Source: Geotalea daltonii FRC-32 (GTDB lineage Bacteria; Desulfobacterota; Desulfuromonadia; Geobacterales; Geobacteraceae). Taken from it: a stretch of 32,000 nt of DNA. This document shows positions 1,810-27,552 of the stretch, in pieces. The position numbers and the translations under genes were made by a program. Each line of letters begins with the position of its first letter. Positions within the stretch are counted from its first letter, which is position 1. The stretch is from positions 2,070,001 through 2,102,000 of the forward strand of contig NC_011979.1 in NCBI RefSeq assembly GCF_000022265.1, given 5' to 3'. The notes under the pieces were generated by a model, which saw nothing but the letters and a program-made list of their open reading frames with translations, did not search any database and was not told the DNA's origin.

Positions 1810-3720
1810 ATGAATGTTATAGATGTCGTTGGTCTGGAAAAGAGTTTCGGTGCCAGGAAGGTCATTGACCATATCACTTTTGCCATTGGGGAAGATGAAA
1901 AGATCGGTCTCATCGGCAGAAACGGTGCCGGTAAATCAACCCTGCTCATGATCCTCGGGGGGCTGGAGGATAGTGAAGGCGGAGTTATAGCCACTAAACG
2001 TGGCGCAACAACCGGTTATTTGTCCCAAGAACCGGCACTGGACCTGGATTTGACCGTGGCCGAGGAGATCGAGCGTGGACTGAAAGAAATACGTCAGGCC
2101 ATGGCAGAGTTCAATGAGCTGTCTGCTCGAATGGCGAGCGGCTCCCCGGATATTGACCGCCTTTTGAACAGACAGGGGGAGCTTTCCGGCTGGATAGAGC
2201 ATCACGGGGGGTGGAACACCGACTACCGGGTTGCGGAAATAATGACCCATCTGCAGCTTCCCGAACCGGACCAGCGGATCGCTGAACTTTCCGGCGGCAC
2301 CAAGCGACGGGTGGCTTTGGCCAAGTTGCTTCTCGAGGCGCCCGACCTGCTCATGCTGGACGAACCCACCAACCATTTGGATGCGGATACCACCCAATGG
2401 CTGCAGGAATATCTCAAGAGTTATCCGGGGGCGGTACTGCTCATTACCCACGACAGGTATTTTCTCGATCAGGTGGCAACCCGGATGCTGGAGCTGGATG
2501 AAGGGGTGATTTCCTCATTCAGCGGCGGCTATACCAGCTATTTGGAACAGAAGGAGCAGCAGCTTCTTCAGGAAGAACATTCACGTTCGCGTCTTTTGAA
2601 CCTGCTGCGTGTGGAAACCGCCTGGATCAGGCGCGGGGCCAAGGCAAGATCCACCAAACAGAAGGCCCGCATCGACCGCTATCAAGCCCTGCAGGAAAAG
2701 AACGTCGTCCCGCAGGCAAAGGACAGCAGGATCGCCTTCACCACCGAGGAAACCCTTGGCGGAACAGTCCTGGAATTTCACGCTCTCACCAAATCATTCG
2801 GTCCGCGGATACTGCTTTCAGACCTGACATTCCTGATGAAGCGGGGGGATCGCATCGGCATCATCGGTCCTAATGGTTGTGGCAAGAGCACCCTGTTGAA
2901 GATGATCATGGGGGAGGAGTGTCCCGATAAGGGCTCCGTCATCATCGGCAAAAAGACGCGCATAGCTTATTTCGATCAGGCCCGTGACATACTCGACCCT
3001 GAGCAGGCGATTTATGATTTTCTCGGCGAAGGGGATTACGTGCAGGTCGGTCCGGACAAACGCCATAAAATCGGCTACCTGGAGGACTTTCTCTTTTCTG
3101 CCTCCGATCGAAGACGTAAAATCGGCACCCTTTCCGGGGGAGAGAAAAGCCGCCTCATAATGGCAAGGCTGATGCTTCAGGATGCCAACCTGCTTATTCT
3201 CGATGAGCCGACCAATGATCTGGACATTCCCACCTTGCAGCTGCTTGACGAGTCGCTGTCCAGTTTCCCTGGCTGTGTCCTGATGGTTACCCACGATCGT
3301 TTCTTTTTGGACAAGGTAGCCACCGGCATCCTTGCTTTTGAAGGAAACGGCAGGGCCGTCTTTTACGAGGGAAACTACACCCAGTATCGTGAGCGCAGGG
3401 AGCAGGCACGGCTGGAAGAGAAGGTCGAAAGCAGGAAAGAGGAGCGGAAGCCAGGTAAACCCGTTTATGCTGAACCTAAGGCAAAAAAGGGACTCACCTA
3501 TGGCGAGCGGATCGAGCTGGAAAAGCTGGAACTGGTGATTGAGGATCTGGAGCAGCAAAAGTCGGCCCTGGAGGCAATGCTTGCCGATCCACTGCATTAT
3601 GAGCAGGCCGAAGGGGGTATTGCCGGAATTTCAGCCCGCTATACCGGGGTGGAGCGTGAACTGGCCGACAAATATGGACGCTGGGAAGAGCTTGAACTGA
3701 AGAAAGAAGGTAACAGCTGA
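1810..3720 (+). CDS. uup: ABC-F family ATPase with two ATP-binding cassettes and a C-terminal coiled-coil (Uup-like)
   Basis: 636 aa. Two Walker A motifs (GRNGAGKST, GPNGCGKST), two signature motifs (LSGGTKRR, LSGGEKSR) and two Walker B motifs (LLMLDEPTNHLD, LLILDEPTNDLD). No transmembrane domain. Charged K/E-rich tail. Confidence 0.85.
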   Translation: MNVIDVVGLEKSFGARKVIDHITFAIGEDEKIGLIGRNGAGKSTLLMILGGLEDSEGGVIATKRGATTGYLSQEPALDLDLTVAEEIERGLKEIRQAMAEFNELSARMASGSPDIDRLLNRQGELSGWIEHHGGWNTDYRVAEIMTHLQLPEPDQRIAELSGGTKRRVALAKLLLEAPDLLMLDEPTNHLDADTTQWLQEYLKSYPGAVLLITHDRYFLDQVATRMLELDEGVISSFSGGYTSYLEQKEQQLLQEEHSRSRLLNLLRVETAWIRRGAKARSTKQKARIDRYQALQEKNVVPQAKDSRIAFTTEETLGGTVLEFHALTKSFGPRILLSDLTFLMKRGDRIGIIGPNGCGKSTLLKMIMGEECPDKGSVIIGKKTRIAYFDQARDILDPEQAIYDFLGEGDYVQVGPDKRHKIGYLEDFLFSASDRRRKIGTLSGGEKSRLIMARLMLQDANLLILDEPTNDLDIPTLQLLDESLSSFPGCVLMVTHDRFFLDKVATGILAFEGNGRAVFYEGNYTQYRERREQARLEEKVESRKEERKPGKPVYAEPKAKKGLTYGERIELEKLELVIEDLEQQKSALEAMLADPLHYEQAEGGIAGISARYTGVERELADKYGRWEELELKKEGNS

Positions 3721-3742: not shown

Positions 3743-3776
3743 AAAAAACCCGCCCCTTGAAAAGGGCGGGTTTTTT
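3743..3776. terminator. Bidirectional Rho-independent terminator between convergent uup and the cytochrome gene
   Basis: AAAAAA-CCCGCCC-(8-nt loop)-GGGCGGG-TTTTTT. The A-run and T-run flank the stem symmetrically, so it can terminate transcription from either strand. Confidence 0.85.
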
Positions 3777-3783: not shown

Positions 3784-5850
3784 CTATGGCACCGGTCGTC
3801 CTCCACCGGATTCAGCCAACAGGTAGTTATATGCTCGTTGCCATGTGGTGGCGCCGAGCTTGGTGCTGAGCGTAAGATCGTCGTTCAAGCCGTGAAGAGT
3901 TCCATTGAACGTGGTGCTGACGCTGCTATTCAACAAACCATCATCGAGCCAGTCTATGGAATCATACATGAGCCTTTTGGCGTAGGCGGGATTATGGGCA
4001 AAAGCACCGGGGTCGTAATAAAACATGAACCAGTTGTAGGTTGCTCCCATGTTATAGGCGGCTTTACGTATTAACTTCGGACTTCCGCCGTCAACCGGAT
4101 CGATGAAGCCGGAGCCGGGGACGGTCTCGTTGGTACTGGCAGAACGCAGCCAGGGCTGAATGATCTGGCCTGTAGTGTTGGTCCCGTACCAGTTGCTGGA
4201 GGTGGGAACCCGTCCCTGGGTATCGAAATCCACTCTTGTCAGGCGGACGTCGAGAGCAAAGGCTAGTACCTGTCTGAAGGCTTCAACTGCGGCGCGGAAA
4301 TCATCCTTTTCCGCTTGCAGTTTTGCCGGTGTCCAGGCATTGGAACCGGTATGGCAGGTGGCGCAGGCTCTGCTGGTTATCGCTGTGATCGGCAGGGCCG
4401 GATTCCTGACATCATGCAGATAGGTGTTGCTTGCTTCGCGATTGACGGGCAGGAATGTATGGGACGTGGCGCCGTCGGAGCCATTGCTGTTCAGGTGACA
4501 GCCAATGCAGGGACCATGGCCGCGGCTGTCGCCGGCGAAAGGCCCTTTGCCGTTCGGTGCTGTCTGATTCATGCCGATGTAGCGATGGGAAAACTTGTCG
4601 CTTGAGTACATGGCGGCGCTGGTATAGAACTCGAAGCCACCTTTTTGATAGAGCATCTGGGCTGCGCCACGGAAATGGTTGACGATCCTTCCGGTACTCG
4701 CCCAATCGATACCCCTTAAGTCGGCCATCTTGATGGTATTACCCACAAGCCGCCCTGAGTGGCAGGCGACGCACAGGTTGGAATCTCCCGCATCATCGAA
4801 TGTCACTACAGACCGAACGGCACGAGTTATTTTACTTGCCGGCCTTCCGGAGTAGTTGGCATAGATGAGGGTTTGGGGCACTTTGCGCAATTTGAAATTG
4901 TAGGTGTTCCCCTTGCCGTCGTCATGACAGACGTCGCAGTTGGTCAACTCCCTCGTCTTGTCTGATGAAAGCCTGCTTCTAAGGGCGGAAAAGGTGGCGC
5001 TTGGCAGGTTCATATAATCGTCAAGCCGATATGGCTTTCCGGTTTTAGGATCGGCGGGTCCAAAGGGACTGAGATTGGTAAATCCCGATTTGACATAATT
5101 GATGAAACCGGTCGAGGTGTGGCAGCGGAGACAGCCGGAGTTGTAAGTGGCGCTGGCTGTGCCTGTAGAATTATCGCTCCACTGCTGCGATGCCGGACCG
5201 AACGAACCTGCGGTCTTGAAATCGACTTCCTCCCGGGAAATGTTACGGAAATCGTATTGGATGGGGGCACTCGTTTCATTTGGATTTTCCAGGCCAAGAG
5301 TAGTGCCATGCCCGCTGCGCGACCAGTCCTTGTTGTACGTGATCAAGGTACTGGTGTCGTGAGGATTATGGCACTTGCGGCAGTTGTTTACATAATTATA
5401 AGAAACAAAGGATGCCGGGTACTCATAGCCGGTCATGTTGTTGAAATGGGCGCTCTGTGTGTTAAGCGGCAGACCGGCGTAACTCTTGCGAGCATCGTAG
5501 CCGGTTGTTGCATTATGGCATTTGCCACACATGCCGGCTTTTTCAGGGTTGTAGAATTCAAGCCCGGCCGTTGTCGAGCCGCCGTGGCAGCTGCCGCAGG
5601 TGTTTGGATGGCCGTTGCCGCTGCCGTGGCAGTCGATGCAGCTGGCTCCATGAAGTGTCCCGTGTGCCGACCGTGCCCACTCATCATTGATTTTTGCACC
5701 GGTAACGGATGAAATAGCCTGTGATGTATTGTGGCAGTCAATGCATTTTTCCGAGGCAGCAAAGGTTGACCCATTCTGACTGGTTTTATCACTTCCGCAG
5801 CCACCCAATAACAGTGTGAATAACAGGAACATTAATCGGCAATATTTCAT
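3784..5850 (-). CDS. Decahaem c-type cytochrome lipoprotein (paralog A, 688 aa)
   Basis: Signal peptide with lipobox LLLGGC. Ten CXXCH motifs: CIDCH x2, CGSCH, CGKCH, CRKCH, CLRCH, CDVCH, CVACH, CIGCH, CATCH. AAGGAGG Shine-Dalgarno sequence upstream of the ATG at 5850. Confidence 0.9.
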   Translation of the reverse strand: MKYCRLMFLLFTLLLGGCGSDKTSQNGSTFAASEKCIDCHNTSQAISSVTGAKINDEWARSAHGTLHGASCIDCHGSGNGHPNTCGSCHGGSTTAGLEFYNPEKAGMCGKCHNATTGYDARKSYAGLPLNTQSAHFNNMTGYEYPASFVSYNYVNNCRKCHNPHDTSTLITYNKDWSRSGHGTTLGLENPNETSAPIQYDFRNISREEVDFKTAGSFGPASQQWSDNSTGTASATYNSGCLRCHTSTGFINYVKSGFTNLSPFGPADPKTGKPYRLDDYMNLPSATFSALRSRLSSDKTRELTNCDVCHDDGKGNTYNFKLRKVPQTLIYANYSGRPASKITRAVRSVVTFDDAGDSNLCVACHSGRLVGNTIKMADLRGIDWASTGRIVNHFRGAAQMLYQKGGFEFYTSAAMYSSDKFSHRYIGMNQTAPNGKGPFAGDSRGHGPCIGCHLNSNGSDGATSHTFLPVNREASNTYLHDVRNPALPITAITSRACATCHTGSNAWTPAKLQAEKDDFRAAVEAFRQVLAFALDVRLTRVDFDTQGRVPTSSNWYGTNTTGQIIQPWLRSASTNETVPGSGFIDPVDGGSPKLIRKAAYNMGATYNWFMFYYDPGAFAHNPAYAKRLMYDSIDWLDDGLLNSSVSTTFNGTLHGLNDDLTLSTKLGATTWQRAYNYLLAESGGGRPVP
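5576..5770 (-). repeat. Copy A of the conserved N-terminal haem-module DNA shared by the two cytochrome paralogs
   Basis: Aligns by eye with 7585-7779. The core 5576-5650 versus 7585-7659 differs at only about 8 of 75 positions. It encodes ...CIDCHGSGNGHP..CGSCHGGST. Confidence 0.7.
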
Positions 5851-6097
5851 GCTGGTGCTGCCTCCTTTACTATAAAAGCATTGTTTATTATGGTTCTTCA
5901 GACATTTCCCGGGAAGACAGTCGTGGCATCGGGAGAGAGTGACGAGCTACAGCGGCGAGCGGACACCCGCCCCATGTGGAACGGAGGCAACCCACCAATT
6001 AAAGCATCGTGGCCACGCCGGATGGAAATGCATGCATGGTGGGAAATACTGGAAGGGAGAAGGCATTCTTTTGTGACCCGTTAATAGTTGGGAATGG

Positions 6098-6130
6098 AAA
6101 AGAGCCCCTGAATTTCGGGGGCTCTCTTTT
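6098..6130 (-). terminator. Rho-independent terminator of cytochrome paralog B
   Basis: On the minus strand: AGAGCCCC-(8-nt loop)-GGGGCTCT followed by TTTTCC, immediately after the stop at 6135-6137. It separates the two cytochrome genes into distinct transcription units. Confidence 0.75.
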
Positions 6131-6134
6131 CAGG

Positions 6135-7871
6135 TTAGTACGGTCTGGCGGTGGAGTAGAAAGTTCCATCCTGTCTTTGAAAGAACCCTGACGGGAACGC
6201 GGTACTCACATATGATTCATTCAACAACCCATCATCGAGAAAATCGAGAGAGTCATAGATAAGTCGCGCTGTGTAGCGGTGATTGTGAGCATAGCCGCCG
6301 GGGTCACGGAAGCAGAGATTCAGGTTGAAGGCGGCACCGAGTGTCCCCTCGTTAGGCCATGGAGCCTGAGCCGGGACCGGTGGCGTCACGGTAGTGTTAC
6401 CTGCGTAGCCGTAGGCTTTCGTCCGGTCATTGTGGTTCACTCCCCCGGGCCAGAAATAGGGGACGCGGTCCGGGTCATAGTATATCCCCTTCGCAGCCAG
6501 GGCGTCCTCCAGTTCCTTGAGCCTTTCGGCATATTCGGCCTTCAGGGTGCGTATGTCGGCTGGGTCTCCGAATGCCAGAGAGACGCTCCCCACGTGGCAC
6601 TTGACACAGACACGGTCGTTTGCCGGGAAGGAAGAGATCGTTGCGTTGATAACCTCCCTGGGACTTTTGGGTCCAGTACCATCCAGTTCCACCACCTTCA
6701 TTGTGTGGTTGTCGTCGTACATATGGCAGGCAACGCAGGGACCACGGGTGGTGCCCAGATTTACCGTGTAGGTTTTGATCACATTTTTGATGCCCAGTTC
6801 ACCGTGCATGAAATAGACACCGCCGTTGTAGATAAGCTGGTAATCGCTATGGGGGCGGTATTCATAGCCCAGGGTACCGTAGAGGGTGCCTGCGGCTGCG
6901 AAATAATGGGAATTTTTTGCCGTTGTCTGGGCAGTACCGGGGTAGGTACCGAAGAAGTTCCTGCCTGAGGTCAGGCCCGAATGACAGTTGATACAGAGAT
7001 TGGAATCTCCTGCGCTCTGATAGGTGGTGCTGGTGGCACTTTCATTTGCTTTTCCGTAGGTAAGGATGGCGCTGCTGAAACTGCCGTAGGGAACGGTCAC
7101 GCCATTGACGCCGCTTGTCCTGCCGTCGACCCTCTTGTAGGAGTAATCCGTATGGCAACCGTTGCAGCGGAGCATTTCCCTGCTCTTGTCAGCTGAAACC
7201 GTTGCCCAAGGCGATGTATCTCCGGTCTTTATGTATTTCAAGAATCCGGTGGTGGTGTGGCACCTGTTGCATGGGTTCATGGTCTTGAAGTCGTAGTGGA
7301 TCCAGGGATCGGCATTGACTTCCCCGTGGCCCGATTCGGCCCATTCCCGGTGCTGCGGCAGGAGGGTGCTTTGGTGGGGAGCATGACAGCCGGTGCACTT
7401 GTTGACGTTTTGCGTTCCAACGTAGCTGGAGGTCGGGACTTTGTCTCCATAGGTGTTGAGAGTGGTGTAGACATCGAAGTGTTTTTCCCCTACGCCGAGT
7501 GGGAAACGTGTTGCATTGACACCATGGCATTTATAGCACTGACCGGCAGAGTCGGGGTTGTGGAATCCCGTGCCGGCAACAGTGGAGCCGCCGTGGCAAC
7601 TGCCGCAGTTGCTGGGGTGGCCGTTACCGCTGCCATGGCAGTCGATGCAGCTTGCTCCTCTCATGAGGTTGTGGCTGGACGCGGCCCATTCGTCGTTAAT
7701 CTTGGCTCCGGTTACCTTTGACACAGGGCTGGAGATGTTGTGGCAGGTGATGCATTTATCGGAGGCAGCGAAGGTGGATTGGGTCAGGCTGTCACTGCTA
7801 TCGCTGCCGCACGCTGTCAACAAAAGCAGCAGTGAGAATAAAATCAGCGTTAGAGGATAAGACAATCTCAT
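6135..7871 (-). CDS. Decahaem c-type cytochrome lipoprotein (paralog B, 578 aa)
   Basis: Signal peptide with lipobox LLLTAC. Ten CXXCH motifs: CITCH, CIDCH, CGSCH, CYKCH, CTGCH, CNRCH, CNGCH, CINCH, CVACH, CVKCH. AAGGAGG Shine-Dalgarno sequence 7 nt upstream. Colinear with paralog A along its whole length. Confidence 0.9.
   Translation of the reverse strand: MRLSYPLTLILFSLLLLLTACGSDSSDSLTQSTFAASDKCITCHNISSPVSKVTGAKINDEWAASSHNLMRGASCIDCHGSGNGHPSNCGSCHGGSTVAGTGFHNPDSAGQCYKCHGVNATRFPLGVGEKHFDVYTTLNTYGDKVPTSSYVGTQNVNKCTGCHAPHQSTLLPQHREWAESGHGEVNADPWIHYDFKTMNPCNRCHTTTGFLKYIKTGDTSPWATVSADKSREMLRCNGCHTDYSYKRVDGRTSGVNGVTVPYGSFSSAILTYGKANESATSTTYQSAGDSNLCINCHSGLTSGRNFFGTYPGTAQTTAKNSHYFAAAGTLYGTLGYEYRPHSDYQLIYNGGVYFMHGELGIKNVIKTYTVNLGTTRGPCVACHMYDDNHTMKVVELDGTGPKSPREVINATISSFPANDRVCVKCHVGSVSLAFGDPADIRTLKAEYAERLKELEDALAAKGIYYDPDRVPYFWPGGVNHNDRTKAYGYAGNTTVTPPVPAQAPWPNEGTLGAAFNLNLCFRDPGGYAHNHRYTARLIYDSLDFLDDGLLNESYVSTAFPSGFFQRQDGTFYSTARPY
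7585..7779 (-). repeat. Copy B of the conserved N-terminal haem-module DNA
   Basis: See the 5576-5770 repeat. It occupies the same position in the paralogous gene. Confidence 0.7.
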
Positions 7872-7890
7872 TCATTTGCCTCCTTTAATC

Positions 7891-7918
7891 AAAATGACGG
7901 TATTGTGACTGTCATTTT
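7891..7918. promoter_or_regulatory. Inverted repeat in the divergent cytochrome control region / 5' UTR of paralog B
   Basis: AAAATGAC at 7891-7898 pairs with GTCATTTT at 7911-7918 (TGAC-N12-GTCA core). On the minus-strand mRNA the hairpin is followed by UUUUGAUU and then the AAAGGAGG Shine-Dalgarno sequence. Confidence 0.35.
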
Positions 7919-8108
7919 TCAAAGCATGGGAAATATAAGTTAGGTTACTGTTTTAGTAAATATTTTTCTTTGCCTGGACGCACGGCAGTTGACTTACCTG
8001 ATTCAATATTGTAATAGTGGTTGGGCTCATTTTTGTTTAAATGGTGGATGTTTAAAAGCTTTCTGCCTTTAATTTAGTATTTTTAATTCTGTGGGGAGGG
8101 TGTTTTTC

Positions 8109-9470
8109 ATGCAAAATCGTGCCGCGATTACCCTGCTTTTGCTGGCAGCAATAGCGCTTCCGCTGGTGGCCGTCGACTGTGCCCATGCGATTCCAGCTTT
8201 CAGCCGTCAACACAAAACCGAATGTTCCACCTGTCATACGATATATCCGGAATTGAACGAGTACGGAGAAGCATTCCAGAAAAACAGCTATGTGCCCTTG
8301 GTGAAGAAATCGGAGGTTAGTGCGCCCGCGCCTGCCGCCGGTCCGGTAGTTTCCGGTGAAGGCGATCCCGAACTGCTGGCGCAGCTGAAGTCACAGGCGG
8401 CTGCCGGCCAAGGGCAGGAAAAAAGAGCCCCGGAACAAAGGGTGCAGGGAAACGAAGGACTGTGGCTCTCCGGCATTCCGGAACTCCTCCCCGTTTCGTT
8501 CAGGGCAACCCAGAACGTGGTCTACAACAATGATGCTGCCGATAATCACAAATTCGATTTCGCCACCCGCACCTTTGTCCTCAACGGCGGCGGTGCGTTC
8601 AGGGACAAGGCCGGCTTTTATGCATCCTACATCCTCAGCAGTCATGCCCAGGACAGCACCAGCCGGAGCAGGGATCTCCACGAGTTGTTTCTCCAGTGGC
8701 GCAACCTTCTCGACACCCCGTTCAATATCAAGTTCGGCCGATTCGAGCCGAAGCTCAACCTGTGGAAATCCAACAACAAGATCACGACTGCGTCCACATT
8801 GGCACCACTGTCCTACAGCGTTGCCGGAGTATTCCCCAGCCGCTTTACCCAGACCTCAAGCCAGGACGCACTTGAGGCCAACGCCATCCTCTGGAAACGG
8901 ATCTTCGTTGCCGGCGGCATAGTGGATCGGGACGGACAGGACCGCAAGGAAGGTTACGGCCATATCTCCTTGAAGCTGGGAGGGGCGGATTTCCATGGTG
9001 AAGAGCCCGAGATGGACCTGGAAAGCGAGAGCATCTTCGATTATCTGACGGTGACCTTCGGCGGCTTCGGTTATGTGGGACGCAACACCTTCGACGATAC
9101 GGGTATCGGCGCCCAGAACCGTTTCTACCGCGCTGGTGGCGACATGGACCTTCAGTACAAACGGCTGAGGATCAAGGTGAGCGGTGTCCACGGCTGGGAT
9201 GAAAACCCTGATTACAGCAGCGCCCCTGTGGAGAGGGATTCCGTTGTCGTCGGCTCTGAGGCCGAATACTACCTGGGATCACCGATCGACGCCGCGGTGC
9301 TTTTCCGTTATGAATACCAGGATGACGGGCTGGAGATTACCCGTCGCTATGTGCCCGCTGTAGTTTACACACCACTGCAGAACGTCAAGCTGTCCCTTGA
9401 GTACCGATATGAAGACATGCGGGAGAAAATTTCCCGAATTGCCCTTCTTGGTGTAACGTACGCTTTTTGA
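8109..9470 (+). CDS. Fused monohaem cytochrome c / outer-membrane beta-barrel protein (Cyc2-like)
   Basis: Start chosen at ATG 8109, with GGGGAGGG 8 nt upstream (the ORF track starts at GTG 8091). Signal peptide ends AHA. A single CSTCH lies a few residues after the cleavage site, in IPAFSRQHKTECSTCHTIYPELNEYGEAFQKNSY. An A/P/G/Q-rich linker follows, then roughly 350 aa of alternating hydrophobic/polar strand-like segments ending ...LLGVTYAF (terminal Phe, typical of outer-membrane barrels). Confidence 0.75.
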   Translation: MQNRAAITLLLLAAIALPLVAVDCAHAIPAFSRQHKTECSTCHTIYPELNEYGEAFQKNSYVPLVKKSEVSAPAPAAGPVVSGEGDPELLAQLKSQAAAGQGQEKRAPEQRVQGNEGLWLSGIPELLPVSFRATQNVVYNNDAADNHKFDFATRTFVLNGGGAFRDKAGFYASYILSSHAQDSTSRSRDLHELFLQWRNLLDTPFNIKFGRFEPKLNLWKSNNKITTASTLAPLSYSVAGVFPSRFTQTSSQDALEANAILWKRIFVAGGIVDRDGQDRKEGYGHISLKLGGADFHGEEPEMDLESESIFDYLTVTFGGFGYVGRNTFDDTGIGAQNRFYRAGGDMDLQYKRLRIKVSGVHGWDENPDYSSAPVERDSVVVGSEAEYYLGSPIDAAVLFRYEYQDDGLEITRRYVPAVVYTPLQNVKLSLEYRYEDMREKISRIALLGVTYAF

Positions 9471-9503
9471 TAACAGAGTCAAAGTATTGCGGAGGAATAT
9501 CAA

Positions 9504-9863
9504 ATGAATAAAGTGTTTTCTTTTCTGATTTTATTCTGCCTTTCTACGACCGCTGCCCACGCCGGGTTGAAAGTCATCGGCAGGGGGGACAGCATGCGGC
9601 TTGATCCTGCAAAATTCCCATCGGCAATGAAGGCTAATTATGAGATCATGAAAACCAAGTGTGTGAAATGCCATACTCTGGAAAGGACAATCGTGGCCAT
9701 TCAGACAGGTGTTGCACCTATTTCCGGACAGATCTTCGACCGGAACGCGACCAAGGCATATGGCGTGAAAATGCTGCGCAAGCCCGATTCCAATATGAGC
9801 AAGCCGGAGGTCAAAGCTACAGTTGAGTTGATGAACTACCTGCTTAATGAAGCTGAACACTAA
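9504..9863 (+). CDS. Small periplasmic monohaem c-type cytochrome
   Basis: 119 aa. Signal peptide ending AHA. Single CVKCH motif. GGAGGA Shine-Dalgarno sequence 7 nt upstream. Only 33 nt downstream of the Cyc2-like gene, so probably co-transcribed. Confidence 0.8.
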   Translation: MNKVFSFLILFCLSTTAAHAGLKVIGRGDSMRLDPAKFPSAMKANYEIMKTKCVKCHTLERTIVAIQTGVAPISGQIFDRNATKAYGVKMLRKPDSNMSKPEVKATVELMNYLLNEAEH

Positions 9864-9948: not shown

Positions 9949-12189
9949 GTGAAAAATATGAAACTCAGTTATCGCCTGGTTGGCTCCTTTCTGATCATGG
10001 CCCTGATTGTCGCCTTGACCGGCGCCTTTGGCTCATGGAGTATGAAAAGGGTGGGGGATCAGATCCAGAACATCATGCAGAACCTGGCAAGCCAGCAGAA
10101 ACTTGTCCTGCTCATGGGAGTGACCCAGAAATACTGCCATGTGAGCCTGATGCAGGCCGCCATGGTTCGCGCCGAAAAGGACAAATTCGAGGAATATGCC
10201 GAAGACTATCGCATGAAGCGGGATTTGTTTCGCAGCCAGTGCGAAATCATGCTGAAAGGAAATGCCAAACTCGGCATCAAGCCTGCCAAGGCAGGAAGTG
10301 TTATTGAGCAACGAACCAACGCCGCCCTTGCCAGCTGGGAAGAGTTCGAGAAAATAGCTGACGAACTTCTGGCTCACAAGGAGGGCCTGCTGAAAGGCGT
10401 GAAGCCTGGTGTCGTAGATCAGGCAGCAATGGCTGCCCTGGCTGACAACAGGCTCAACAAGCTTGCCCAGGAAGATATTGCCGATGCGATTGAAAAGGCA
10501 AAGGCCGACACTGATGATCTGCTCCTTGAGGTCGGAACGCAGATGACCAAGGCGGACAAGCAGGTTCATGAGATTCAGAGCACTTCGGTGATCGCCTTTG
10601 TCGTTGTGATTATCGCAGCGGTCATTCTCGGTATACTCCTGGGTATCAAAACCACAAGGAATATCGTTACGCGCATCCATTCAATGGCAAAAGCACTTGA
10701 TGAAGGTGCAGATGGAAATCTTACCACAAGGGTAGCTGTTGATTCCGGCGACGAGTTGGGAAAACTTGGTGCGGATTTCAACGTCATGGCTGCAAAACTC
10801 TCCGTGGTGGTCGGTAAAGTCAATCGATCTGCTGCCGAGCTCACCTCTATCTCCGGTACCATAAATGAGTCATCCCAGAAGGTTGTCGATACTGCCAGAA
10901 TACAGGCTGACAGTGTCAACAACACTTCTGCGGCTATTTCCCAGATAAATACCTCGGTCAAAGGGGTTGCCAGGGGGGTGGACAGCCTGTCCCTTTCCGC
11001 CTCCGAAAGCTCTTCCTCTATTCTCGAAATGGCCGCCAGTGTCGAAGAGGTTGCCCAGAATGTTGAAACACTTTCCCATTCCGTTGAGGATGTGAGTTCT
11101 TCCATCACCCAGATGGCCGCATCCATCAAGCAGATCGGCAACGGGGTGGTGAGCCTTCTCGATGTGGCCACGTCAACTGCTTCGTCGGTTATGGAAATGG
11201 ACAGCACCATCAAGCAGGTGGAAAGAAATGCCATGGAGACAGCTGCCATCTCCGATGAAGTCCGCAAGGATGCTGAAACCGGCAAGGAAGCCGTTGAGGC
11301 TACCATCGAAGGTATTGATGAGATCAAGCGTTCTTCCCGCATTACCTACGAAGTTATTGATACTCTCTCCGGACGGACCACCGATATTGGCGCCATTCTT
11401 TCAGTTATCGACGAGGTGGCGGAGCAGACAAATCTTTTGGCCCTGAATGCAGCCATTATTGCTGCGCAGGCTGGGGAGCACGGCAAGGGGTTTGCCGTGG
11501 TGGCCGACGAGATAAAAGAACTTGCCGAACGTACCAGCAGTTCCACCAGGGAAATTGCCATGGTCATCAAAGCCGTGCAGGATGAGACTCACCGGGCGGT
11601 AAAGGCAATGGAGCAGGCTGAAAAGAGCATTGCCGACGGCGAGCTCCTGTCACGGAAATCCGGTGAAGCGTTGAACAAGATCGTAACCGGGGTGCAGAAA
11701 GCAACCGAACAGGTGGATGAGATAGCCCGCGCCACTGTCGAGCAGGCAAAGGGCAGCCAGATGATCCGCGAAGCAATGGAGCAGGTGTCCGAGATGGTGG
11801 AGCAGATTGCCAAGGCCACTCGCGAGCAGGGGCAGGGAAGCGAATTGATTATGACCGCCGTGGAAAAAATGAAGGCACTCACCGGACAGGTCAGGTCTTC
11901 TACCCGGGAGCAGAGCAAAGTCGGCAGCTTCATTGCCAAATCAACGGAAAACATAACCGACATGATTCAGCAGATAAAACGCGCCTGTGATGAACAGAAC
12001 CGGGGCAGCGAGCAGATCGTTGTCGCCGTCGAGGACATTCAGCAGTCGACCCATATCAACCTGGAGGCCACCGGTGCCATGAACGAAGCGGTTTCGGGCC
12101 TTTTCCGCCAGATCGAAGTCCTGCGCAAGGAGATGGACATGTTCAAGGTGGACGAGGAAGAAGTTACTGAACTTGAGGAAACGGCATAA
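9949..12189 (+). CDS. Methyl-accepting chemotaxis protein with a periplasmic helical sensor, a HAMP domain and an unusually long signalling hairpin
   Basis: 746 aa. Two TM segments (approx. res 10-30 and 205-225). HAMP-like segment (...[18 protein letters not shown]). Highly conserved MCP tip [34 protein letters not shown]. About 450 aa follow HAMP, with visible internal repeats. The start is GTG 9949 (ACGAGGG upstream) or ATG 9958. Confidence 0.95.
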
Positions 12190-14122: not shown

Positions 14123-15397
14123 ATGACCTATCAGGAGATTCTCAACCACATATACAGCCTTGGCCGTTTCGGTATCAGGCCGGGTTTAGACCGAATAACC
14201 GCCCTGCTGCAAGCCCTGGATAATCCCCAGTCGACCTTCAAATCCGTTCACGTGGCCGGTACCAACGGCAAAGGCTCCACCTCGTGTTTTATGGCATCCA
14301 TGCTTGCTGAGGGAGGCTATCGCGTCGGGCTTTTTACCTCACCGCATCTGATCAGCTTCACCGAGAGAATCCGCATCAACGGCATGGAAATTTTCGAAGA
14401 GGACGTGGTCAGGCTGGGGCAGAGGGTGCTGTCGGCAGCACCGGCGGAAACGACGTTTTTTGAAATGGTCACTGCCATGGCCTGTCTCCATTTTGCCGAA
14501 CAGAAGGTGGATTTGGCTGTCATGGAAGCAGGCATGGGGGGAAGCTTTGATGCCACCAACGCCCTTGACGGCATTCTCTCGGTCATTACTCCTATCTCTA
14601 TTGACCACAGCGAATATCTGGGGTCATCCATTGCTGCCATTGCCAGAGAGAAAGCGGGCATCATCAAGGCGGGGCGACCGGTGGTCATTTCCTCCCAAGA
14701 GCCTGACGCAAGGGGGGAACTGGAAATGCGTTGCCGTGAACTGGACAGCCCCCTCTATTGCTGTGGCAGAGACTTTGACGCGGAGTGGCTGGAAAACGGC
14801 CTTTCCTACAAAGGGGGGGCCATTTCACTGGCAGGCCTCAGGCCGGGACTTTGCGGCAGCTATCAGAAATTCAATGCTGCTGTAGCTCTGGCCGCAGTGG
14901 AGGCCCTTGGCCAGGCGGGATTTTCCATGGCAATGACTGCCATGTCTGCCGGGATCGAAGTGGCAAAGTGGCCGGGCCGGATGGAGATGCTAAACACTTC
15001 ACCTCGCATACTCCTTGACGGAGCCCACAACCCGGCCGGAAGCGCGGCACTGGCTGGTGCCCTGTCTGAAATCCCACGCAGGCGGCTGCTGCTGATCGTT
15101 GGCGTTATGGGGGACAAGGATCTGGGGGGCATTCTCGGACCTATCCTGCCTTTCGCCGATGAGGTCTTTGCCGTAGCACCTTTGTTGCCGCGGGCTCTCC
15201 CAGCGGCGGAACTTGCAGAATTCTGCCGTCGACAAGGGCTGATGGCCCATGATGCGGGGAGCGTGACGGCTGGATTGGCTGCTGCCCGGAGTCGGGCCGG
15301 GGCCGATGACCTGATCCTTGTCTGCGGGTCCCTCTTCACGGTGGGGGAGGCAAGAGCCACCCTTTTTTCCCGGCAATACGAGCCGTTCCGCGGTTGA
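14123..15397 (+). CDS. folC: Bifunctional folylpolyglutamate synthase / dihydrofolate synthase
   Basis: 424 aa Mur-ligase-family protein with P-loop HVAGTNGKGST. It sits in the accD-folC synteny that is conserved in many proteobacteria. Confidence 0.9.
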   Translation: MTYQEILNHIYSLGRFGIRPGLDRITALLQALDNPQSTFKSVHVAGTNGKGSTSCFMASMLAEGGYRVGLFTSPHLISFTERIRINGMEIFEEDVVRLGQRVLSAAPAETTFFEMVTAMACLHFAEQKVDLAVMEAGMGGSFDATNALDGILSVITPISIDHSEYLGSSIAAIAREKAGIIKAGRPVVISSQEPDARGELEMRCRELDSPLYCCGRDFDAEWLENGLSYKGGAISLAGLRPGLCGSYQKFNAAVALAAVEALGQAGFSMAMTAMSAGIEVAKWPGRMEMLNTSPRILLDGAHNPAGSAALAGALSEIPRRRLLLIVGVMGDKDLGGILGPILPFADEVFAVAPLLPRALPAAELAEFCRRQGLMAHDAGSVTAGLAAARSRAGADDLILVCGSLFTVGEARATLFSRQYEPFRG

Positions 15398-15451
15398 AAG
15401 CAGTATTAATATCGGTCCAGCTTTTCAAATTTTAGCCTGTCAGAGTCCTAA

Positions 15452-17518
15452 ATGAAGCTTTCAAGAGCCCTTGGGCCGTTTTGCAAAATTCTCTTTTTCC
15501 TTGCCTGCGCCAGTTCTGCCATGGCCACCGATGTTTCTCCATCGGGACCGGTGCGTATTTCTGCCGACAGCCTTTCCTATGCTGAAAGGAGTTCGTCTTT
15601 TCAGGCCGAAGGCAATGTGCGTATCAGGTATGACGGCGTCACACTTCTGTCGGACAGCGCCGTTTTCAGTGAAGAAGAGGGCGAAGCCATTGCCGAAGGC
15701 AACGTTGTCCTGGAAAAAGGGGAAGATACACTCCATGGTGACCGGGTCAGGCTGAATACGGTGACGGAGCAGGGAGAGGTGGCAAATGGCTATCTTTTTC
15801 TGAAGAAGCCTAATTTCCATATTCGTAGCGGCCTGATGAGCAAGGTGGGCACCGATGACTACCACATGGAGCGGGGTGCCTTCACCACCTGTGACGGCGA
15901 TTCTCCCAGTTGGCATTTTACCGCCAGGAATCTGGATCTTACTCTGGAAGAATATGCGACCGGCAGCGATGTGCTTTTTTACGTGAAGGATGTTCCCCTC
16001 TTCTATCTTCCCTATTTTATTTTCCCCGTTAAAACCGAACGGCAGTCAGGATTTCTCTTTCCGCGCCTCGGCAATTCTACGAAAAAAGGATTTTATCTGG
16101 ACATTCCCTTTTACTGGGCCATCACCCCGAGCCAGGATGCCACCCTCAATCTGGACATCCAAACCAAACGCGGGGTGGGTACCGGTATCGATTACCGCTA
16201 CATGGCCAAGGGGGGAAGCGAAGGGTCAATTGCCGGCTACGGCATTTACGATACCTCCCAGTCAAGATTCCGCGGCGATATCCTTCAGCGGCATGTGGAT
16301 GCCACTGCCGGTAGCCTCACCTTCAGGTCTGACATCAATCTGGTGAGTGACCGGGACTTTTACCGGGACTTTACCAACGATGCCGGGGAATATAACCGCC
16401 AGTACCTGGATTCAAGGGCGGCCTTGACAAAGCATTGGCAGGACCAGGTACTGAACGCGGAATTGGGCTATGTGCAAAACGTCGACATCGGCAGCAGCGA
16501 CAAAACGACCCTGCAGAGGCTTCCCTCTGTTTCCTTTACGGCTGTCCGGCGCAAGATCGGCGACAGCCCCTTTTTCTTTTCACTGGATTCAAGCGCCGTA
16601 AATTTTTACCGCCCACAGGGAATTGAAGGGCAGCGCTTTACCGTGCACCCCACGGTTACCTCGTATTTTCAAGCGGGTTTCCTCGATCTATCGGCTTCTG
16701 CAGGCTACAGCCAGCGTCTTTACAATGCCTACGGCGGCGATTCGGGTAATGGTACCCATGGCGAAGGCGTTGCCGATGCCGGGCTGACCGTATCGAGCCG
16801 CTTCGCCAGGATATTCGATACCCGGATGCTGTCGATGCCCAAGGTGCGCCATCTGCTGATACCGGAGGTTGCCTATTCTTTCGTTCAGGAACGCAATCAG
16901 GATGAACTTCCCTTTTTCGACTATGACGACCGGATGCTGGGGCAGAATCTGGTCACCCTTTCATTGGCCAACTATGTCACCGGAAAATTCACCCAGGCCG
17001 ACGGGTCTTCCCTTTATCGGGAAATCATGTTTTTGCGGCTGAGCCAAGGATACCAGGCTACCGGTTCCCGCCGCGACCTGCTGACCTTGGTGGACGAAGG
17101 GAGGTCGCTGACCGATCTCAGGATCCAGTCACGGCTGTCGCCCATGAACGGGCTGTCATTGGACCTTGACAGCCGTTTCAACACCTACCGGGGAAGCTTT
17201 TCCTCGACCATCCTTGCTGCCGGATACGATGGGGAAAACGGCAACAGGTTCGGGGTCGGCTATCGCTTTACCAGGGACTCGCTGGAGTACCTGGAAGGTA
17301 CACTCGGCGTTGGTCTTGTAAAACCCTTTGTTTTCAATTACACTGGCCGCTATTCTTTCGACAAGGGTGATTTTCTTGAGTCTATCTACGCACTTGAATA
17401 CAAGCATCAGTGCTGGGGAGTGACCTTGTCCTATCGTGACCGGCCGGATAATCGGGAATTCATGCTGACCTTCACCCTGGCCGGGGTGGGTGCCGTCGGT
17501 CCCCTGAAGACTTTCTAA
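15452..17518 (+). CDS. lptD: LPS-assembly outer-membrane protein LptD
   Basis: 688 aa. Signal peptide, OstA-like N-terminal domain (ISADSLSY...AEGNVRIRYDGVTLLSDSAVF...AEGNVVLEKGEDTLHGDRV), and a large C-terminal beta-barrel region. Confidence 0.85.
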   Translation: MKLSRALGPFCKILFFLACASSAMATDVSPSGPVRISADSLSYAERSSSFQAEGNVRIRYDGVTLLSDSAVFSEEEGEAIAEGNVVLEKGEDTLHGDRVRLNTVTEQGEVANGYLFLKKPNFHIRSGLMSKVGTDDYHMERGAFTTCDGDSPSWHFTARNLDLTLEEYATGSDVLFYVKDVPLFYLPYFIFPVKTERQSGFLFPRLGNSTKKGFYLDIPFYWAITPSQDATLNLDIQTKRGVGTGIDYRYMAKGGSEGSIAGYGIYDTSQSRFRGDILQRHVDATAGSLTFRSDINLVSDRDFYRDFTNDAGEYNRQYLDSRAALTKHWQDQVLNAELGYVQNVDIGSSDKTTLQRLPSVSFTAVRRKIGDSPFFFSLDSSAVNFYRPQGIEGQRFTVHPTVTSYFQAGFLDLSASAGYSQRLYNAYGGDSGNGTHGEGVADAGLTVSSRFARIFDTRMLSMPKVRHLLIPEVAYSFVQERNQDELPFFDYDDRMLGQNLVTLSLANYVTGKFTQADGSSLYREIMFLRLSQGYQATGSRRDLLTLVDEGRSLTDLRIQSRLSPMNGLSLDLDSRFNTYRGSFSSTILAAGYDGENGNRFGVGYRFTRDSLEYLEGTLGVGLVKPFVFNYTGRYSFDKGDFLESIYALEYKHQCWGVTLSYRDRPDNREFMLTFTLAGVGAVGPLKTF

Positions 17519-17563
17519 AGCTTCGCACAATTTATAAATACTCAGCAGGGTGAGACAGGAGGA

Positions 17564-18643
17564 ATGATGTCGGAAAACTTTAAACCGCGTGCCGTTCTCG
17601 TCACCGGTGGCGCCGGGTTCATCGGCTCGAACTTCATCAACAGCTTTATGCCGGCCAATCCCGGTTGTCGGATCATCAATCTGGATCTTCTCACCTATGC
17701 GGGAAACCTGGAAAACCTGAAAGAGGTGGAAAATAACCACTGCTACCGCTTTGTCAAGGGCGATATCTGCGATGCTTCTCTGGTGGCAAGGTTGCTTGTA
17801 GAGGAAAAAATAGATGCGGTGGTGCACTTTGCCGCCGAATCCCATGTGGATCGTTCCATCACCGGTCCGGAAGTCTTCGTCCGCACCAACGTCCTGGGCA
17901 CACAGGTGCTCCTGGAAGAGAGCCGCAAGCACTGGCAGGCCAAGGTCGTGCCGCAGTTTCGCTATCTTCAGGTCTCCACCGACGAGGTCTACGGTTCACT
18001 GGGAGATACCGGTTTTTTTACCGAGGAAACTCCCCTTGCCCCCAACTCTCCCTATTCGGCCAGCAAGACCGGTGCAGACCTCCTGGTCCGCGCTTACCAC
18101 GAGACCTACGGTTTTCCTACCCTCAATACCCGCTGTTCAAATAATTACGGACCATGTCATTTCCCCGAGAAGCTGATACCCCTCATGATCCACAACATCA
18201 TGAACAGAAAGCCGCTCCCCGTCTACGGCGATGGCCTCAATGTGCGGGATTGGCTCCATGTGAAGGACCACTCCATCGCCATCGAGACAGTACTGAAAAC
18301 CGGCCGGCTCGGCCAGGTCTACAATATTGGCGGCAACAACGAATGGAAGAACATCGACATCGTCAACCTGGTCTGCGACCTGCTTGATGGCAGGCTCGGG
18401 CGTGCAGAAGGGGAAAACCGGCAGCTCATTACCTTCGTCAAGGACCGCCCCGGCCATGACCGCCGTTATGCCATCGACGCATCGAAAATGCGTCGGGAAC
18501 TGGGGTGGGAACCATCCTATACCTTCGAGCGCGGCATTGCCGAGACCATCGACTGGTATCTGGCTAATCAGGACTGGGTCGAAGAGGTGACCTCCGGCGC
18601 TTATCGCGACTACTATGAAAAGATGTACGGGGGACGCGGATGA
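17564..18643 (+). CDS. rfbB: dTDP-glucose 4,6-dehydratase
   Basis: VTGGAGFIGSNF Rossmann motif, YSASKTGADLL catalytic YxxxK, and a C-terminal ...RPGHDRRYAIDASK signature. AGGAGG upstream favours the second ATG at 17567. Confidence 0.95.
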   Translation: MMSENFKPRAVLVTGGAGFIGSNFINSFMPANPGCRIINLDLLTYAGNLENLKEVENNHCYRFVKGDICDASLVARLLVEEKIDAVVHFAAESHVDRSITGPEVFVRTNVLGTQVLLEESRKHWQAKVVPQFRYLQVSTDEVYGSLGDTGFFTEETPLAPNSPYSASKTGADLLVRAYHETYGFPTLNTRCSNNYGPCHFPEKLIPLMIHNIMNRKPLPVYGDGLNVRDWLHVKDHSIAIETVLKTGRLGQVYNIGGNNEWKNIDIVNLVCDLLDGRLGRAEGENRQLITFVKDRPGHDRRYAIDASKMRRELGWEPSYTFERGIAETIDWYLANQDWVEEVTSGAYRDYYEKMYGGRG

Positions 18644-19470
18644 TACTCATTGTCGGTGCAAAAGGGATGCTGGGCCAGGATCTGATGGCGCTATTCGGTC
18701 CTGGGGCCCGTGGCGTGGACCTGGAAGATATCGATATCACGTCACTGGAATCGGTGCAGAAGGTTCTTTTTACCATCAGGCCACGGGTTGTGATAAATGC
18801 CGCAGCCTACACGGATGTGGACGGCTGTGAAACGAACCAGGAACCGGCCATGCAGGTAAATGGCGAAGGGGTCGCCCATTTAGCCCTGGCCACCAGCGAG
18901 ATCGGCGCCAAACTGGTGCAGGTGAGTACCGACTATGTTTTTGACGGCGGTAAGGGGAGTCCTTATCTGGAGGATGAACCGACTGCGCCCCTGAGCGTCT
19001 ATGGCGAATCAAAGCTGGCAGGGGAAATGAATGCCCGCTTCAACCCCGACCACGTTATCGTCAGGACCCAGTGGCTGTATGGCATAAACGGCAAGAACTT
19101 TGTCGAAACCATGTTGCGCCTGGCTACGGAGAAAAGGGAACTGGCGGTGGTCGATGACCAGATCGGTTCTCCAACCTGGACTGTCGATCTGGCCTTGGCC
19201 ATCAAGGCGCTCGTCGAAAAAGATTGTCGTGGCATCTACCATGCGGCCAACGCCGGTTTCTGTTCCTGGAATGAATTTGCCCGCGCCATTTTTGCTGAGT
19301 CGGGCCTGGATGTCACTGTCAATCCCATGTCGACCAAGGATCTCGGACGACCGGCGCCGCGGCCGCTTTATTCCACCCTGGACTGCGGCAAGCTGACCCG
19401 TGACACCGGATTTCAGCCACAGCCGTGGCGAGAGGCGCTGAAGCATTATCTGAAACTGAGGAGGCTGTGA
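18640..19470 (+). CDS. rfbD: dTDP-4-dehydrorhamnose reductase
   Basis: 276 aa. ATGA overlap with rfb[10 protein letters not shown] YxxxK motif and colinearity with RfbD/RmlD. Confidence 0.9.
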
Positions 19471-19835: not shown

Positions 19836-19871
19836 TCTTCTGCTGCGTCCTACCAACCAAAGGAATCCCTG

Positions 19872-21014: not shown

Positions 21015-21024
21015 CCCACTGGGC

Positions 21025-21053
21025 TTGACATATCCTGGACAACAACCTAGACT
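21025..21053 (+). promoter_or_regulatory. sigma70-like promoter candidate (TTGACA-N17-TAGACT) upstream of manC
   Basis: A perfect TTGACA at 21025-21030, a 17-nt spacer, then TAGACT at 21048-21053. Confidence 0.4.
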
Positions 21054-21099
21054 TTGCAGCGTCATCAGCGATAAGAATTTCCCTTTCAGGAGATGCCAA

Positions 21100-22246: not shown

Positions 22247-22251
22247 GGGTT

Positions 22252-25148: not shown

Positions 25149-25156
25149 TAGGAGCG

Positions 25157-27523: not shown

Positions 27524-27552
27524 TCTGTTACAACGTTGAAAAATCGTAACAA

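Follow-up and report, generated by a model that had tools for sequence, protein, structure and literature searches.

A Cyc2-family cytochrome-porin is genetically linked to decahaem lipoproteins and a monohaem cytochrome in Geotalea daltonii and other Geobacterales

Two textbook designs carry electrons across the bacterial outer membrane, a multihaem cytochrome held in a haem-free porin, which serves mainly solids, and the monohaem cytochrome-porin fusion Cyc2, which is thought to act on dissolved Fe2+ only. The first design is represented by MtrCAB, OmaB-OmbB-OmcB and the ExtABCD, ExtEFG and ExtHIJKL clusters, the second by Cyc2 of Fe(II) oxidisers (A. ferrooxidans Cyc2, Mariprofundus Cyc2PV-1, Leptospirillum Cyt572; FeGenie clusters 1-3). 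Many cyc2 genes precede a gene for a small periplasmic c-type cytochrome. Here we describe a locus of Geotalea (formerly Geobacter) daltonii FRC-32 that differs architecturally from both designs and has relatives widespread in Geobacterales. It lies in a stretch of 32,000 nucleotides (contig NC_011979.1, positions 2,070,001 to 2,102,000 of the forward strand), referred to as the window, whose numbering is used throughout, and consists of genes A and B on the minus strand, each encoding a decahaem lipoprotein, and genes C and D on the plus strand, encoding a Cyc2-family cytochrome-porin and a small monohaem cytochrome (Table 1). We consider it moderately probable that this locus represents a conserved Geobacterales outer-membrane electron-transfer module built around C.

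C is homologous to Cyc2 of the Fe(II) oxidisers and alike in architecture, and gene C, too, precedes the gene for a small cytochrome. In contrast to those systems, however, the host belongs to the Fe(III)-reducing Geobacterales, the family of C deviates from the Cyc2 sequence motif, the gene for a 9-10-haem lipoprotein is almost always attached, a Cyc2 partner of which we found no description, and chemotaxis or signalling genes adjoin the module. With the Mtr, Omb and Ext conduits the locus shares the clustering of genes for a barrel, a periplasmic cytochrome and a lipoprotein multihaem cytochrome, and in the Ext and OmcB clusters the lipoprotein is likewise the fast-evolving, frequently replaced part (PMC6148476). 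Unlike these conduits, the module has no periplasmic multihaem cytochrome of the MtrA, OmaB or ExtA type. The barrel of C has 16 strands and its own haem, whereas theirs have 18-26 strands, are haem-free and sheathe a periplasmic cytochrome, and C has no sequence relationship to the MtrB, OmbB or Ext barrels. A and B, in turn, lack both the C4xC/C2xCH family (PF09698) and the four-domain MtrC fold that mark OmcB and MtrC.

The four open reading frames (ORFs) described in the initial annotation, which had been made from the sequence of the window, are all present. Direct counting confirmed that A and B are paralogous lipobox proteins with ten CXXCH motifs each. C carries one CXXCH directly after its signal peptide, with an AHA signal-peptidase site, and ends in Phe (...GVTYAF), whereas D, a protein of 119 amino acids (aa) with a signal peptide and one CXXCH, starts 33 nt past the stop codon of C. 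The region separating the two gene sets is AT-rich as described, but its length had been given as 219 bp and positions 7872-8108 comprise 237 bp. A length of 219 bp (32% GC) fits only an in-frame GTG start of C at 8091, and the ATG at 8109 is favoured by relatives and by the GenBank annotation (ACM20220.1, 453 aa).

The published criteria for Cyc2 comprise a signal peptide, one CXXCH, AXPXFAR[Q/K][T/Y] upstream and PXL four residues downstream of it, a length of at least 365 aa and a 16-strand barrel resembling OprO/OprP (PMC8406198). C has a signal peptide, MQNRAAITLLLLAAIALPLVAVDCAHA, with the mature protein beginning IP, and exactly one CXXCH, CSTCH, which lies no more than about 12 residues from the mature N-terminus. 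The sequence that follows the AHA cut, IPAFSRQHKTECSTCHTIYPEL, is near-invariant in 119 of the 120 homologues listed. Its motif AIPAFSRQH matches AxPxFAR[QK][TY] at seven of nine positions, Ala being replaced by Ser and Thr/Tyr by His, and the strict regular expression PXFAR[QK][TY] failed on it. In place of FAR[QK][TY] the family of C has FSRQH, FTRQY or FARQH, and a minority of members with FARQY pass the strict screen, so that most of the family, including C, would be dropped by the regular expression behind the published Cyc2 tree on account of two substitutions. The PxL element is present (CSTCH-TIY-PEL), with P47, E48 and L49 at least 90% conserved or invariant, and with 453 aa C exceeds the minimum length.

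In the AlphaFold2 (AF2) model C forms 16 strands (pLDDT 74.6 overall, above 85 over most of the barrel), bearing out the beta-barrel-like region that had been noticed initially, and Foldseek retrieved 16-strand porins, with OprP (2o4v) at rank 2 (E 2.4e-11) and OprO (4rjw) at rank 7. A hidden Markov model (HMM) of the family scored 28-60 bits against the haem domains of reference Cyc2 proteins of clusters 1-3 and about 15 bits against a cluster 3 barrel, the reference sequences being taken from the FeGenie supplement and shuffled barrel controls giving 1.6 bits at most. Alignment with hhalign yielded a probability of 96.1% for a Sideroxydans cluster 1 Cyc2, reaching the first barrel strands, and of 96.6% for a Rhodoferax cluster 2 Cyc2. 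An exhaustive profile search returned 2,985 related clusters; among the 150 listed, the strict motif occurs in 66 of 114 full-length matches, which are distant relatives (E 1e-26 to 1e-48), indicating that the family of C grades into canonical cluster-3-like Cyc2. Finally, in the published FeGenie output the G. bemidjiensis orthologue, which has the same motif string, is called Cyc2_repCluster3 (66.2 bits, cutoff 27.3), and cluster 3 cyc2 has already been reported there in Geobacter iron reducers (PMC7005843). C thus belongs to the Cyc2 superfamily, nearest cluster 3. The Cyc2-like assignment made initially is upheld by the CXXCH and PxL motifs, fold, HMM, hhalign and the FeGenie call on the orthologue alike, and C falls in the family of fused cytochrome-porins, not in a non-redox porin family.

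An ordinary phosphate porin was rejected as an identity for C, the Pfam Porin_O_P match being sub-threshold (15.4 versus 20.9 bits); canonical Cyc2 proteins likewise have only low sequence similarity to OprO/OprP (PMC8406198). We also noted that the FeGenie output lists a 'cluster 3 cyc2' for G. sulfurreducens (NC_002939.5_1044; PMC7005843), a protein of 241 aa with the haem domain MSAFARKYGMQCDGCH...PKLNEFG and a Pro/Ala-rich tail. It has no barrel and is therefore not a porin-cytochrome, and its length is below the filter that FeGenie itself states.

Apart from the CXXCH histidine, H285 is the only conserved His or Met of the Cyc2-like family. It is located in predicted strand 8 (window about 8961-8963) within the motif KEGYGHxSxK and is conserved in 82 of 86 Cyc2-like sequences, covering all three types of locus distinguished below. 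This singular position makes H285 a candidate distal ligand, which would place the haem of C inside the barrel lumen.

The signal peptide of D ends in AHA, followed by Gly, and its haem motif CVKCH (C53-H57) lies in a mature cytochrome of about 100 residues that has weak similarity to mitochondrial-type class I cytochrome c. Since M90 and M98 are conserved in at least 95% of 73 homologues, His/Met ligation of the haem is likely. D is the most conserved component of the locus, with 82-87% identity where the Cyc2-like protein has about 50%. A Geobacter monohaem cytochrome, PccH, is needed for cathodic electron uptake. Comparison of D with all PDB chain sequences (E up to 10) gave no match so labelled and only weak ones to mitochondrial-type cytochrome c, it being unconfirmed that the PccH structure, which we take to be 4RLR, is among the chains searched.

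The lipobox of A reads LLGG before C18, that of B LLTA before C21, and 20 of the 22 Cys of each protein are part of CXXCH motifs, with no CXXCK and no longer or variant haem motif in either one. A and B are 33% identical overall (E 1e-82) and about 75% identical over the first ~110 residues, and they have the C-terminal motif DPGxYAHNxxYxxRLIYDSxDxLDDG in common. A matches P0149, 'lipoprotein cytochrome c, 10 heme-binding sites', and B matches P0121, both at 100%, and B shares 72% identity with the single multihaem protein of the nearest metagenomic relative. Pfam assigned generic multihaem families only, NCBIfam scores amounted to 15-29 bits against cutoffs of 134-400, and candidate distal histidines are mostly conserved in the two proteins. 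Compared with the PDB, the profile of the A/B family gave weak local matches, the best to OmhA (6qvm, 5e-8) and others to NrfA (1e-7 to 1e-3) and MtrF (3.4e-5), and PF22113, the MtrC/MtrF haem domain, has precomputed matches in relatives of A and B. The AF2 model of B (pLDDT 74.9) shows haem-packing coil with short helices and a confident C-terminal helical domain (437-547), the first haem motif following about 15-19 residues past the lipid Cys, and contains no beta-barrel domain. Foldseek identified no PDB fold neighbour of this model (best E 4.8) and no match to MtrC, MtrF or OmcA. A and B are thus multihaem proteins like the cell-surface cytochromes OmhA/OcwA of Gram-positive bacteria and MtrC/MtrF/OmcA, whereas their C-terminal helical domain has no identified counterpart in these. 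They are best assigned to an uncharacterised decahaem lipoprotein family and match no known reductase family; their being periplasmic or inner-membrane enzymes, for example of such a family, was what the initial annotation had named as speaking against its proposal.

Three more specific identities for A and B were rejected. The MtrC/OmcA type, a four-domain fold in which two split beta-barrels (I, III) alternate with two pentahaem domains (II, IV), is ruled out by the AF2 fold and Foldseek; the enzymes NrfA, OTR and HAO are ruled out by NCBIfam scores far below cutoff and by the lack of CXXCK; and the OmcB type is ruled out as neither protein has a PF09698 match, though a giant cytochrome neighbouring the related locus of Geobacter sp. 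DSM 9736 has one.

Compared with Geotalea sp. SG265, G. daltonii shows 89% identity in the Cyc2-like protein and 92% each in D and in the methyl-accepting chemotaxis protein (MCP) encoded next to D, but only 47-52% in the multihaem protein, whose identity plateaus near 40% in more distant comparisons. Its conservation is centred on the haem motifs and the AHN...RLIYDS segment (511-540), with many insertion hot spots between them. In Geobacter conduits the outer-surface lipoproteins show non-orthologous replacement and less than 40% identity while the periplasmic parts are conserved, and in those of G. sulfurreducens the lipoprotein cytochromes are the extracellular parts (PMC6148476). Both the lipobox and the variability of A and B match these outer lipoproteins, which argues indirectly that A and B are surface-exposed; the PDB match to the cell-surface cytochrome OmhA and the PF22113 matches of relatives point the same way.

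The linkage of these genes was followed across genomes. A genome scan with a single-protein query gave five close loci, and a further 80 at 31-100% identity came from scanning metagenomes with the family alignment; some 95 loci were scanned with marker profiles for the A/B family, the Cyc2-like protein, the monohaem cytochrome and the MCP only, and Pfam gene tables were obtained for 13 looked-up loci. The five close genomes have the order trpB-SLT-ABC-F-(one decahaem gene, minus strand)-(Cyc2-like)-(119 aa)-MCP-trpA-accD, whose core is repeated in G. uraniireducens, Geomonas limicola, Geomesophilobacter sediminis and several metagenome-assembled genomes (MAGs). Overall, the linkage spans Geotalea, Geomonas, Geomobilimonas, Geomesophilobacter, Oryzomonas and Desulfuromonadaceae MAGs, the flanking genes differing. 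Immediately upstream of the Cyc2-like gene lies an ORF with 9-10 haem motifs in 42 of the 43 metagenome loci with at least 2 kb of upstream DNA, and a 9-10-haem lipoprotein of the A/B family is encoded directly upstream in all 13 loci from genome or long metagenome records. An ORF for a monohaem protein of ~119 aa follows downstream in 62 of the 65 loci with enough downstream DNA, and the adjacency persists down to 39% identity. Every multihaem protein encoded upstream is a member of the A/B family, with 350-630 bits against the family HMM, and most have a lipobox.

The trio is also kept where the flanks differ wholly (loci L007, L011 and L012). In Geobacter sp. DSM 9736 (L007) it sits amid cytochrome-biogenesis genes, with a 2,504-aa cytochrome upstream and a major facilitator superfamily transporter downstream. 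The biogenesis genes of that locus (L007:1-2256) are of the ResB/CcsA type, and the 2,504-aa multihaem protein contains the motif family GSu_C4xC__C2xCH.

Three architectures can be distinguished. In Type I, that of G. daltonii, the multihaem gene is divergent from the genes for a Cyc2-like protein of ~430-460 aa, the monohaem cytochrome and the MCP. In Type II, exemplified by Oryzomonas japonica and Geobacter sp. AOG2, the genes for the multihaem protein, a Cyc2-like protein of ~490-530 aa and the monohaem cytochrome follow each other on the same strand, separated by 0-60 bp or joined by stop/start overlaps. Type III, three loci at ~32% identity, has the Cyc2-like, monohaem and MCP genes and no multihaem gene within 2 kb upstream; in one of them (L088) the upstream gene was judged from its sequence to encode an HlyD-like efflux protein. 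From the CXXCH to the C-terminus the Cyc2-like proteins have a median length of 400 residues in Type I and 461 in Type II. As two gene arrangements keep the same three families together, chance adjacency appears very unlikely. Absence of co-occurrence of the minus- and plus-strand genes in relatives, which the initial annotation had named as grounds for abandoning its proposal, is not what is seen, since co-occurrence is near-universal, persists with differing flanks and takes the form of a single tight operon in one clade. Beside the trio the marker scan of ~95 loci detected no further multihaem gene of the A/B family, the 13 Pfam tables list no periplasmic multihaem gene, and with the two approaches neither a periplasmic multihaem cytochrome nor a haem-free porin was detected in any locus, in line with what had been noted initially for the locus in the window. 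Judged by gene order, the conserved unit of Types I and II is made up of three genes, encoding the multihaem lipoprotein, the Cyc2-like protein and the monohaem cytochrome.

The nearest relatives, with Cyc2-like proteins 84% and 89% identical to C, have one multihaem gene, and none of the ~95 loci has two. By this gene content gene A is specific to G. daltonii and extra to the conserved unit. The four-cytochrome unit of the initial annotation is thereby retained as far as the linkage of the genes on both strands is concerned, but reduced to three components, A being an extra copy found only in G. daltonii. A shares 50-54% identity with the long (750-830 aa) multihaem proteins of Type II loci (L061, L063, L065, L066, L076) and 52% with the single multihaem protein of the nearest Type I relative. 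Being equally close to both types, A is suggested to stem, by acquisition or retention, from another lineage of the variable partner and not from a recent tandem duplication of B.

A promoter scan of the divergent region predicted a sigma-70-type promoter for the Cyc2-like operon at 7989-8018 on the plus strand, with a near-consensus TTGACT, a spacing of 17-18 nt and the extended -10 element TGTAATAGT. The 10-mers over the -35 (GTTGACTTCA and its neighbours) and -10 elements (CAATATTGTA, TATTGTAATA) recur exactly in 17-21 of 33 Type I spacers, most of which are ~230-280 bp long and low in GC. Conservation upstream of the -35 element hints at an additional, putative protein-binding site. Promoter blocks TTGTTAAGTTGACTTCAC and CAATATTGTAATAAT were seen in about 20 of the 33 Type I loci, which span ~50% protein divergence, and are unusually conserved for intergenic DNA. 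An inverted repeat, AAATGAC-N12-GTCATTT, was read by eye at 7895-7920, near the start of gene B.

The terminator hairpin of gene B with its T run leaves gene A with an upstream region of its own, in which (5851-6134) the scan found no consensus promoter. The only Rfam matches of the hairpin downstream of gene A are weak and concern the terminator-like portions of leader models. Cytochrome genes of Geobacter are often preceded by GEMM-I c-di-GMP/cGAMP riboswitches. Riboswitch control of A or B was rejected, as no Rfam family, GEMM included, reached its gathering score in the window.

Table 1. Positions of the genes and control elements of the locus in the window.
Feature	Position	Strand	Description
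ABC-F gene	1810-3720	+	Convergent with gene A
Bidirectional terminator hairpin between ABC-F gene and gene A	3743-3776	both	Terminator-like sites on both strands, 3754-3766
Gene A	3784-5850	-	688-aa decahaem lipoprotein; apparently a lineage-specific second paralogue of the variable multihaem partner
Spacer	5851-6134	-	284 bp; gene B intrinsic terminator and gene A leader/promoter region
Gene B intrinsic terminator	~6102-6124	-	Hairpin GAGCCCC-N9-GGGGCTC followed by a T run, read from the sequence
Gene B	6135-7871	-	578-aa decahaem lipoprotein; positional counterpart of the single multihaem gene of relatives
Divergent control region	7872-8108		237 bp, AT-rich, 34% GC
Gene C	8109-9470	+	453-aa fusion of a Cyc2-family monohaem cytochrome and a 16-strand outer-membrane porin; ACM20220.1
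Gene D	9504-9863	+	119-aa secreted monohaem class-I-like cytochrome c, putative periplasmic partner; ACM20221.1
MCP gene	9949-12189	+	746 aa; four-helix-bundle sensor, HAMP, MCPsignal (Pfam); module membership unsettled

Positions 14123-28386 are occupied by housekeeping and cell-envelope genes (folC, lptD, rmlB/rmlD-like, nhaA, manC-like, aldehyde:ferredoxin oxidoreductase, class II aldolase, murJ, mazG), and the remainder of the window contains no additional cytochrome or porin gene. The GC content falls to 0.48 at 27-28 kb and to 0.44 at 30-31 kb.

For the electron-transfer module that we favour the following mechanism can be envisaged. D would shuttle electrons in the periplasm, and the haem of C, which probably lies in the lumen of the barrel and is the only redox centre within the membrane, would carry them across the outer membrane. 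The decahaem lipoprotein would dock on the outer face, extending the range of possible contacts beyond dissolved Fe(II)/Fe(III) to solids, chelates or other cells. Such a module would replace the design of MtrCAB, OmaB-OmbB-OmcB and Ext, in which a periplasmic multihaem cytochrome is threaded through a large haem-free porin. We infer this route, from the periplasmic monohaem via the barrel haem to the surface decahaem, with a complex of A/B and C included. As to the direction of electron flow, we favour inward flow, that is oxidation or sensing of Fe(II) or reduced surfaces, over bulk outward Fe(III) respiration, because of the Cyc2 ancestry of C and the probable His/Met ligation of D.

Several points weigh against this mechanism. 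A barrel of 16 strands cannot sheathe a multihaem cytochrome, so that one haem would have to bridge the membrane, with partner haems within ~14 Å on both faces. The haem domain of C is modelled at low confidence (pLDDT below 50 at residues 22-43), and the model contains a long beta5-beta6 loop (213-251), presumably in a position like that of the constriction loop of classical porins, which may rival the haem domain for the lumen. A lipoprotein such as A or B can also face the periplasm, and Type III loci keep the Cyc2-like, D and MCP genes without a multihaem gene, indicating that the multihaem protein is not obligatory. Moreover, no version of the cluster encodes an inner-membrane quinol oxidoreductase, signalling genes are found near every version, which agrees with sensing no less than with respiration, and monohaem Cyc2 has been argued to handle only dissolved Fe2+ (Keffer et al., PMC8406198).

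The presence of signalling genes beside every architecture, an association that had not been raised in the initial annotation, brings up a sensory rather than respiratory role, the strongest of the rival explanations, which we regard as possible but rather doubtful. C and a decahaem antenna would then report extracellular Fe(II) or the redox state of a surface to D, steering redox or Fe(II) taxis and not carrying a respiratory current, and D would be read out by the adjacent MCP in Types I and III or by a pair of DUF4388 and membrane proteins in Type II. The gene next after D encodes the MCP in nearly every Type I locus and in each of the three Type III loci (~32% identity), among them L012, where trpA is not adjacent. 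In Type II a 321-aa DUF4388 protein (PATAN-like) and a 249-aa polytopic membrane protein are encoded ahead of the trio in every locus that is long enough, with 65-95% identity to the proteins of L094 (L094:4217-5966), and in five metagenome or isolate loci of the Oryzomonas japonica/Geobacter sp. AOG2 group a gene for a CheX/CheC phosphatase is located downstream (L094:10218-10724). A sensory role would also agree with the lack of a quinol oxidoreductase, with a single monohaem periplasmic carrier being the most conserved part, and with the Cys-His pair C63-H64 ('KYCH') in the sensor domain of the MCP, the two residues being conserved in 33 and 30 of 36 orthologues, respectively. Geobacter metallireducens is said, in work of Childers et al. 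from 2002, to be chemotactic to Fe(II). Congregation of Shewanella around minerals needs outer-membrane cytochromes and an MCP (PMC5789149), and in this behaviour, a form of energy taxis (MtrBC/OmcA, MCP SO_2240, CheA-3), cytochromes of extracellular electron transfer are likewise tied to an MCP. There, however, the genes are not linked and an indirect mode of sensing, through the proton motive force, is assumed, whereas here the MCP gene is directly downstream, an adjacency to the cytochrome pair that suggests direct input.

Against a sensory role it has to be held that MCP-trpA-accD is part of a wider conserved synteny, so that the MCP gene may predate cytochrome genes inserted beside it, and that the MCP gene is missing in L007 and L008, the trio of Geobacter sp. 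DSM 9736 thus existing without it. In addition, the sensor domain of the MCP contains neither CXXCH nor a known redox cofactor motif, and adjacency is the sole evidence for the connection. The more specific proposal of a dedicated sensor for extracellular redox or Fe(II) taxis, in which a surface decahaem antenna and C would pass on the redox state of minerals, electrodes or dissolved Fe(II) to His/Met-ligated D, which would directly modulate the MCP or, in clusters of the Oryzomonas type, the DUF4388/membrane-protein pair together with CheX, is in our estimation unlikely.

A conventional Cyc2-type oxidation appears improbable. According to this explanation C would oxidise dissolved Fe2+ at or in its pore and pass the electrons to D, while the decahaem protein, anchored in the inner leaflet of the outer membrane and facing the periplasm, would act as an electron sink or capacitor or as a link to the periplasmic cytochrome pool. 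The system might serve nitrate-dependent Fe(II) oxidation or shield the cell from Fe(II). The family membership of C is in keeping with this, as are the weak similarity of A and B to periplasmic NrfA-type cytochromes and the probable His/Met ligation of D, which suggests a potential, itself inferred, above that of the bis-His Ppc cytochromes. In the published view monohaem Cyc2 acts on dissolved Fe2+ (PMC8406198), and G. metallireducens, which has cyc2, oxidises Fe(II) with nitrate (FeGenie, PMC7005843). For a protein facing the periplasm, however, divergence much faster than that of its partners would be unexpected, and the lipoprotein cytochromes of Geobacter conduits, which have exactly such variability, are outer-surface parts (PMC6148476). 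The Cyc2 authors, moreover, explicitly call the function of cluster 3 uncertain, Fe(II) oxidase activity being unverified for nearly all members (PMC8406198).

That the cytochrome genes form no functional unit and are neighbours by chance or shared gene-order ancestry while serving unrelated pathways is very improbable, and the occurrence of two independent gene arrangements all but refutes it. In its favour, long-range synteny (trpB-SLT-ABC-F ... MCP-trpA-accD) could alone hold the genes together in close relatives, and transcription of the Type I multihaem gene is divergent. Against it, the trio survives a change of both flanks, is rearranged into a co-directional operon with stop/start overlaps in another clade and stays adjacent at the frequencies and down to the identity given above.

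The combination of genes in the electron-transfer module appears to be new, as had been supposed in the initial annotation, although one of its members is not. A literature search by accession for papers citing ACM20218-20221, WP_012646949 or B9M7D2 gave false matches only. A 2024 survey of multihaem cytochromes in Desulfuromonadia restricts porin-cytochrome operons to a fixed set of multihaem groups, in which Cyc2 does not figure; MHCscan by default requires at least 15 haems per cluster and excludes Cyc2 unless retuned. The Cyc2-decahaem-monohaem module thus appears to be undescribed, that linkage not having been found in the literature consulted, whereas its Cyc2-like member is known, the gene having been published for Geobacter.

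If C and the decahaem lipoprotein cooperate, Cyc2-type proteins would not be restricted to dissolved iron, and 'cyc2' would not be a clean metagenome marker of iron oxidation, since it is present in classic iron reducers. Geobacter relatives of the subsurface and of paddy soil would, in that case, gain an extra conduit or sensor that G. sulfurreducens may not have, as the sole FeGenie cyc2 call noted there is the barrel-less protein of 241 aa. Should the proposal of a dedicated taxis sensor prove true, the module would provide the long-sought molecular input for Fe(II) chemotaxis and the location of Fe(III) oxide by Geobacter, and it would be the first case in which electron transfer by outer-membrane cytochromes serves as a chemotaxis signal.

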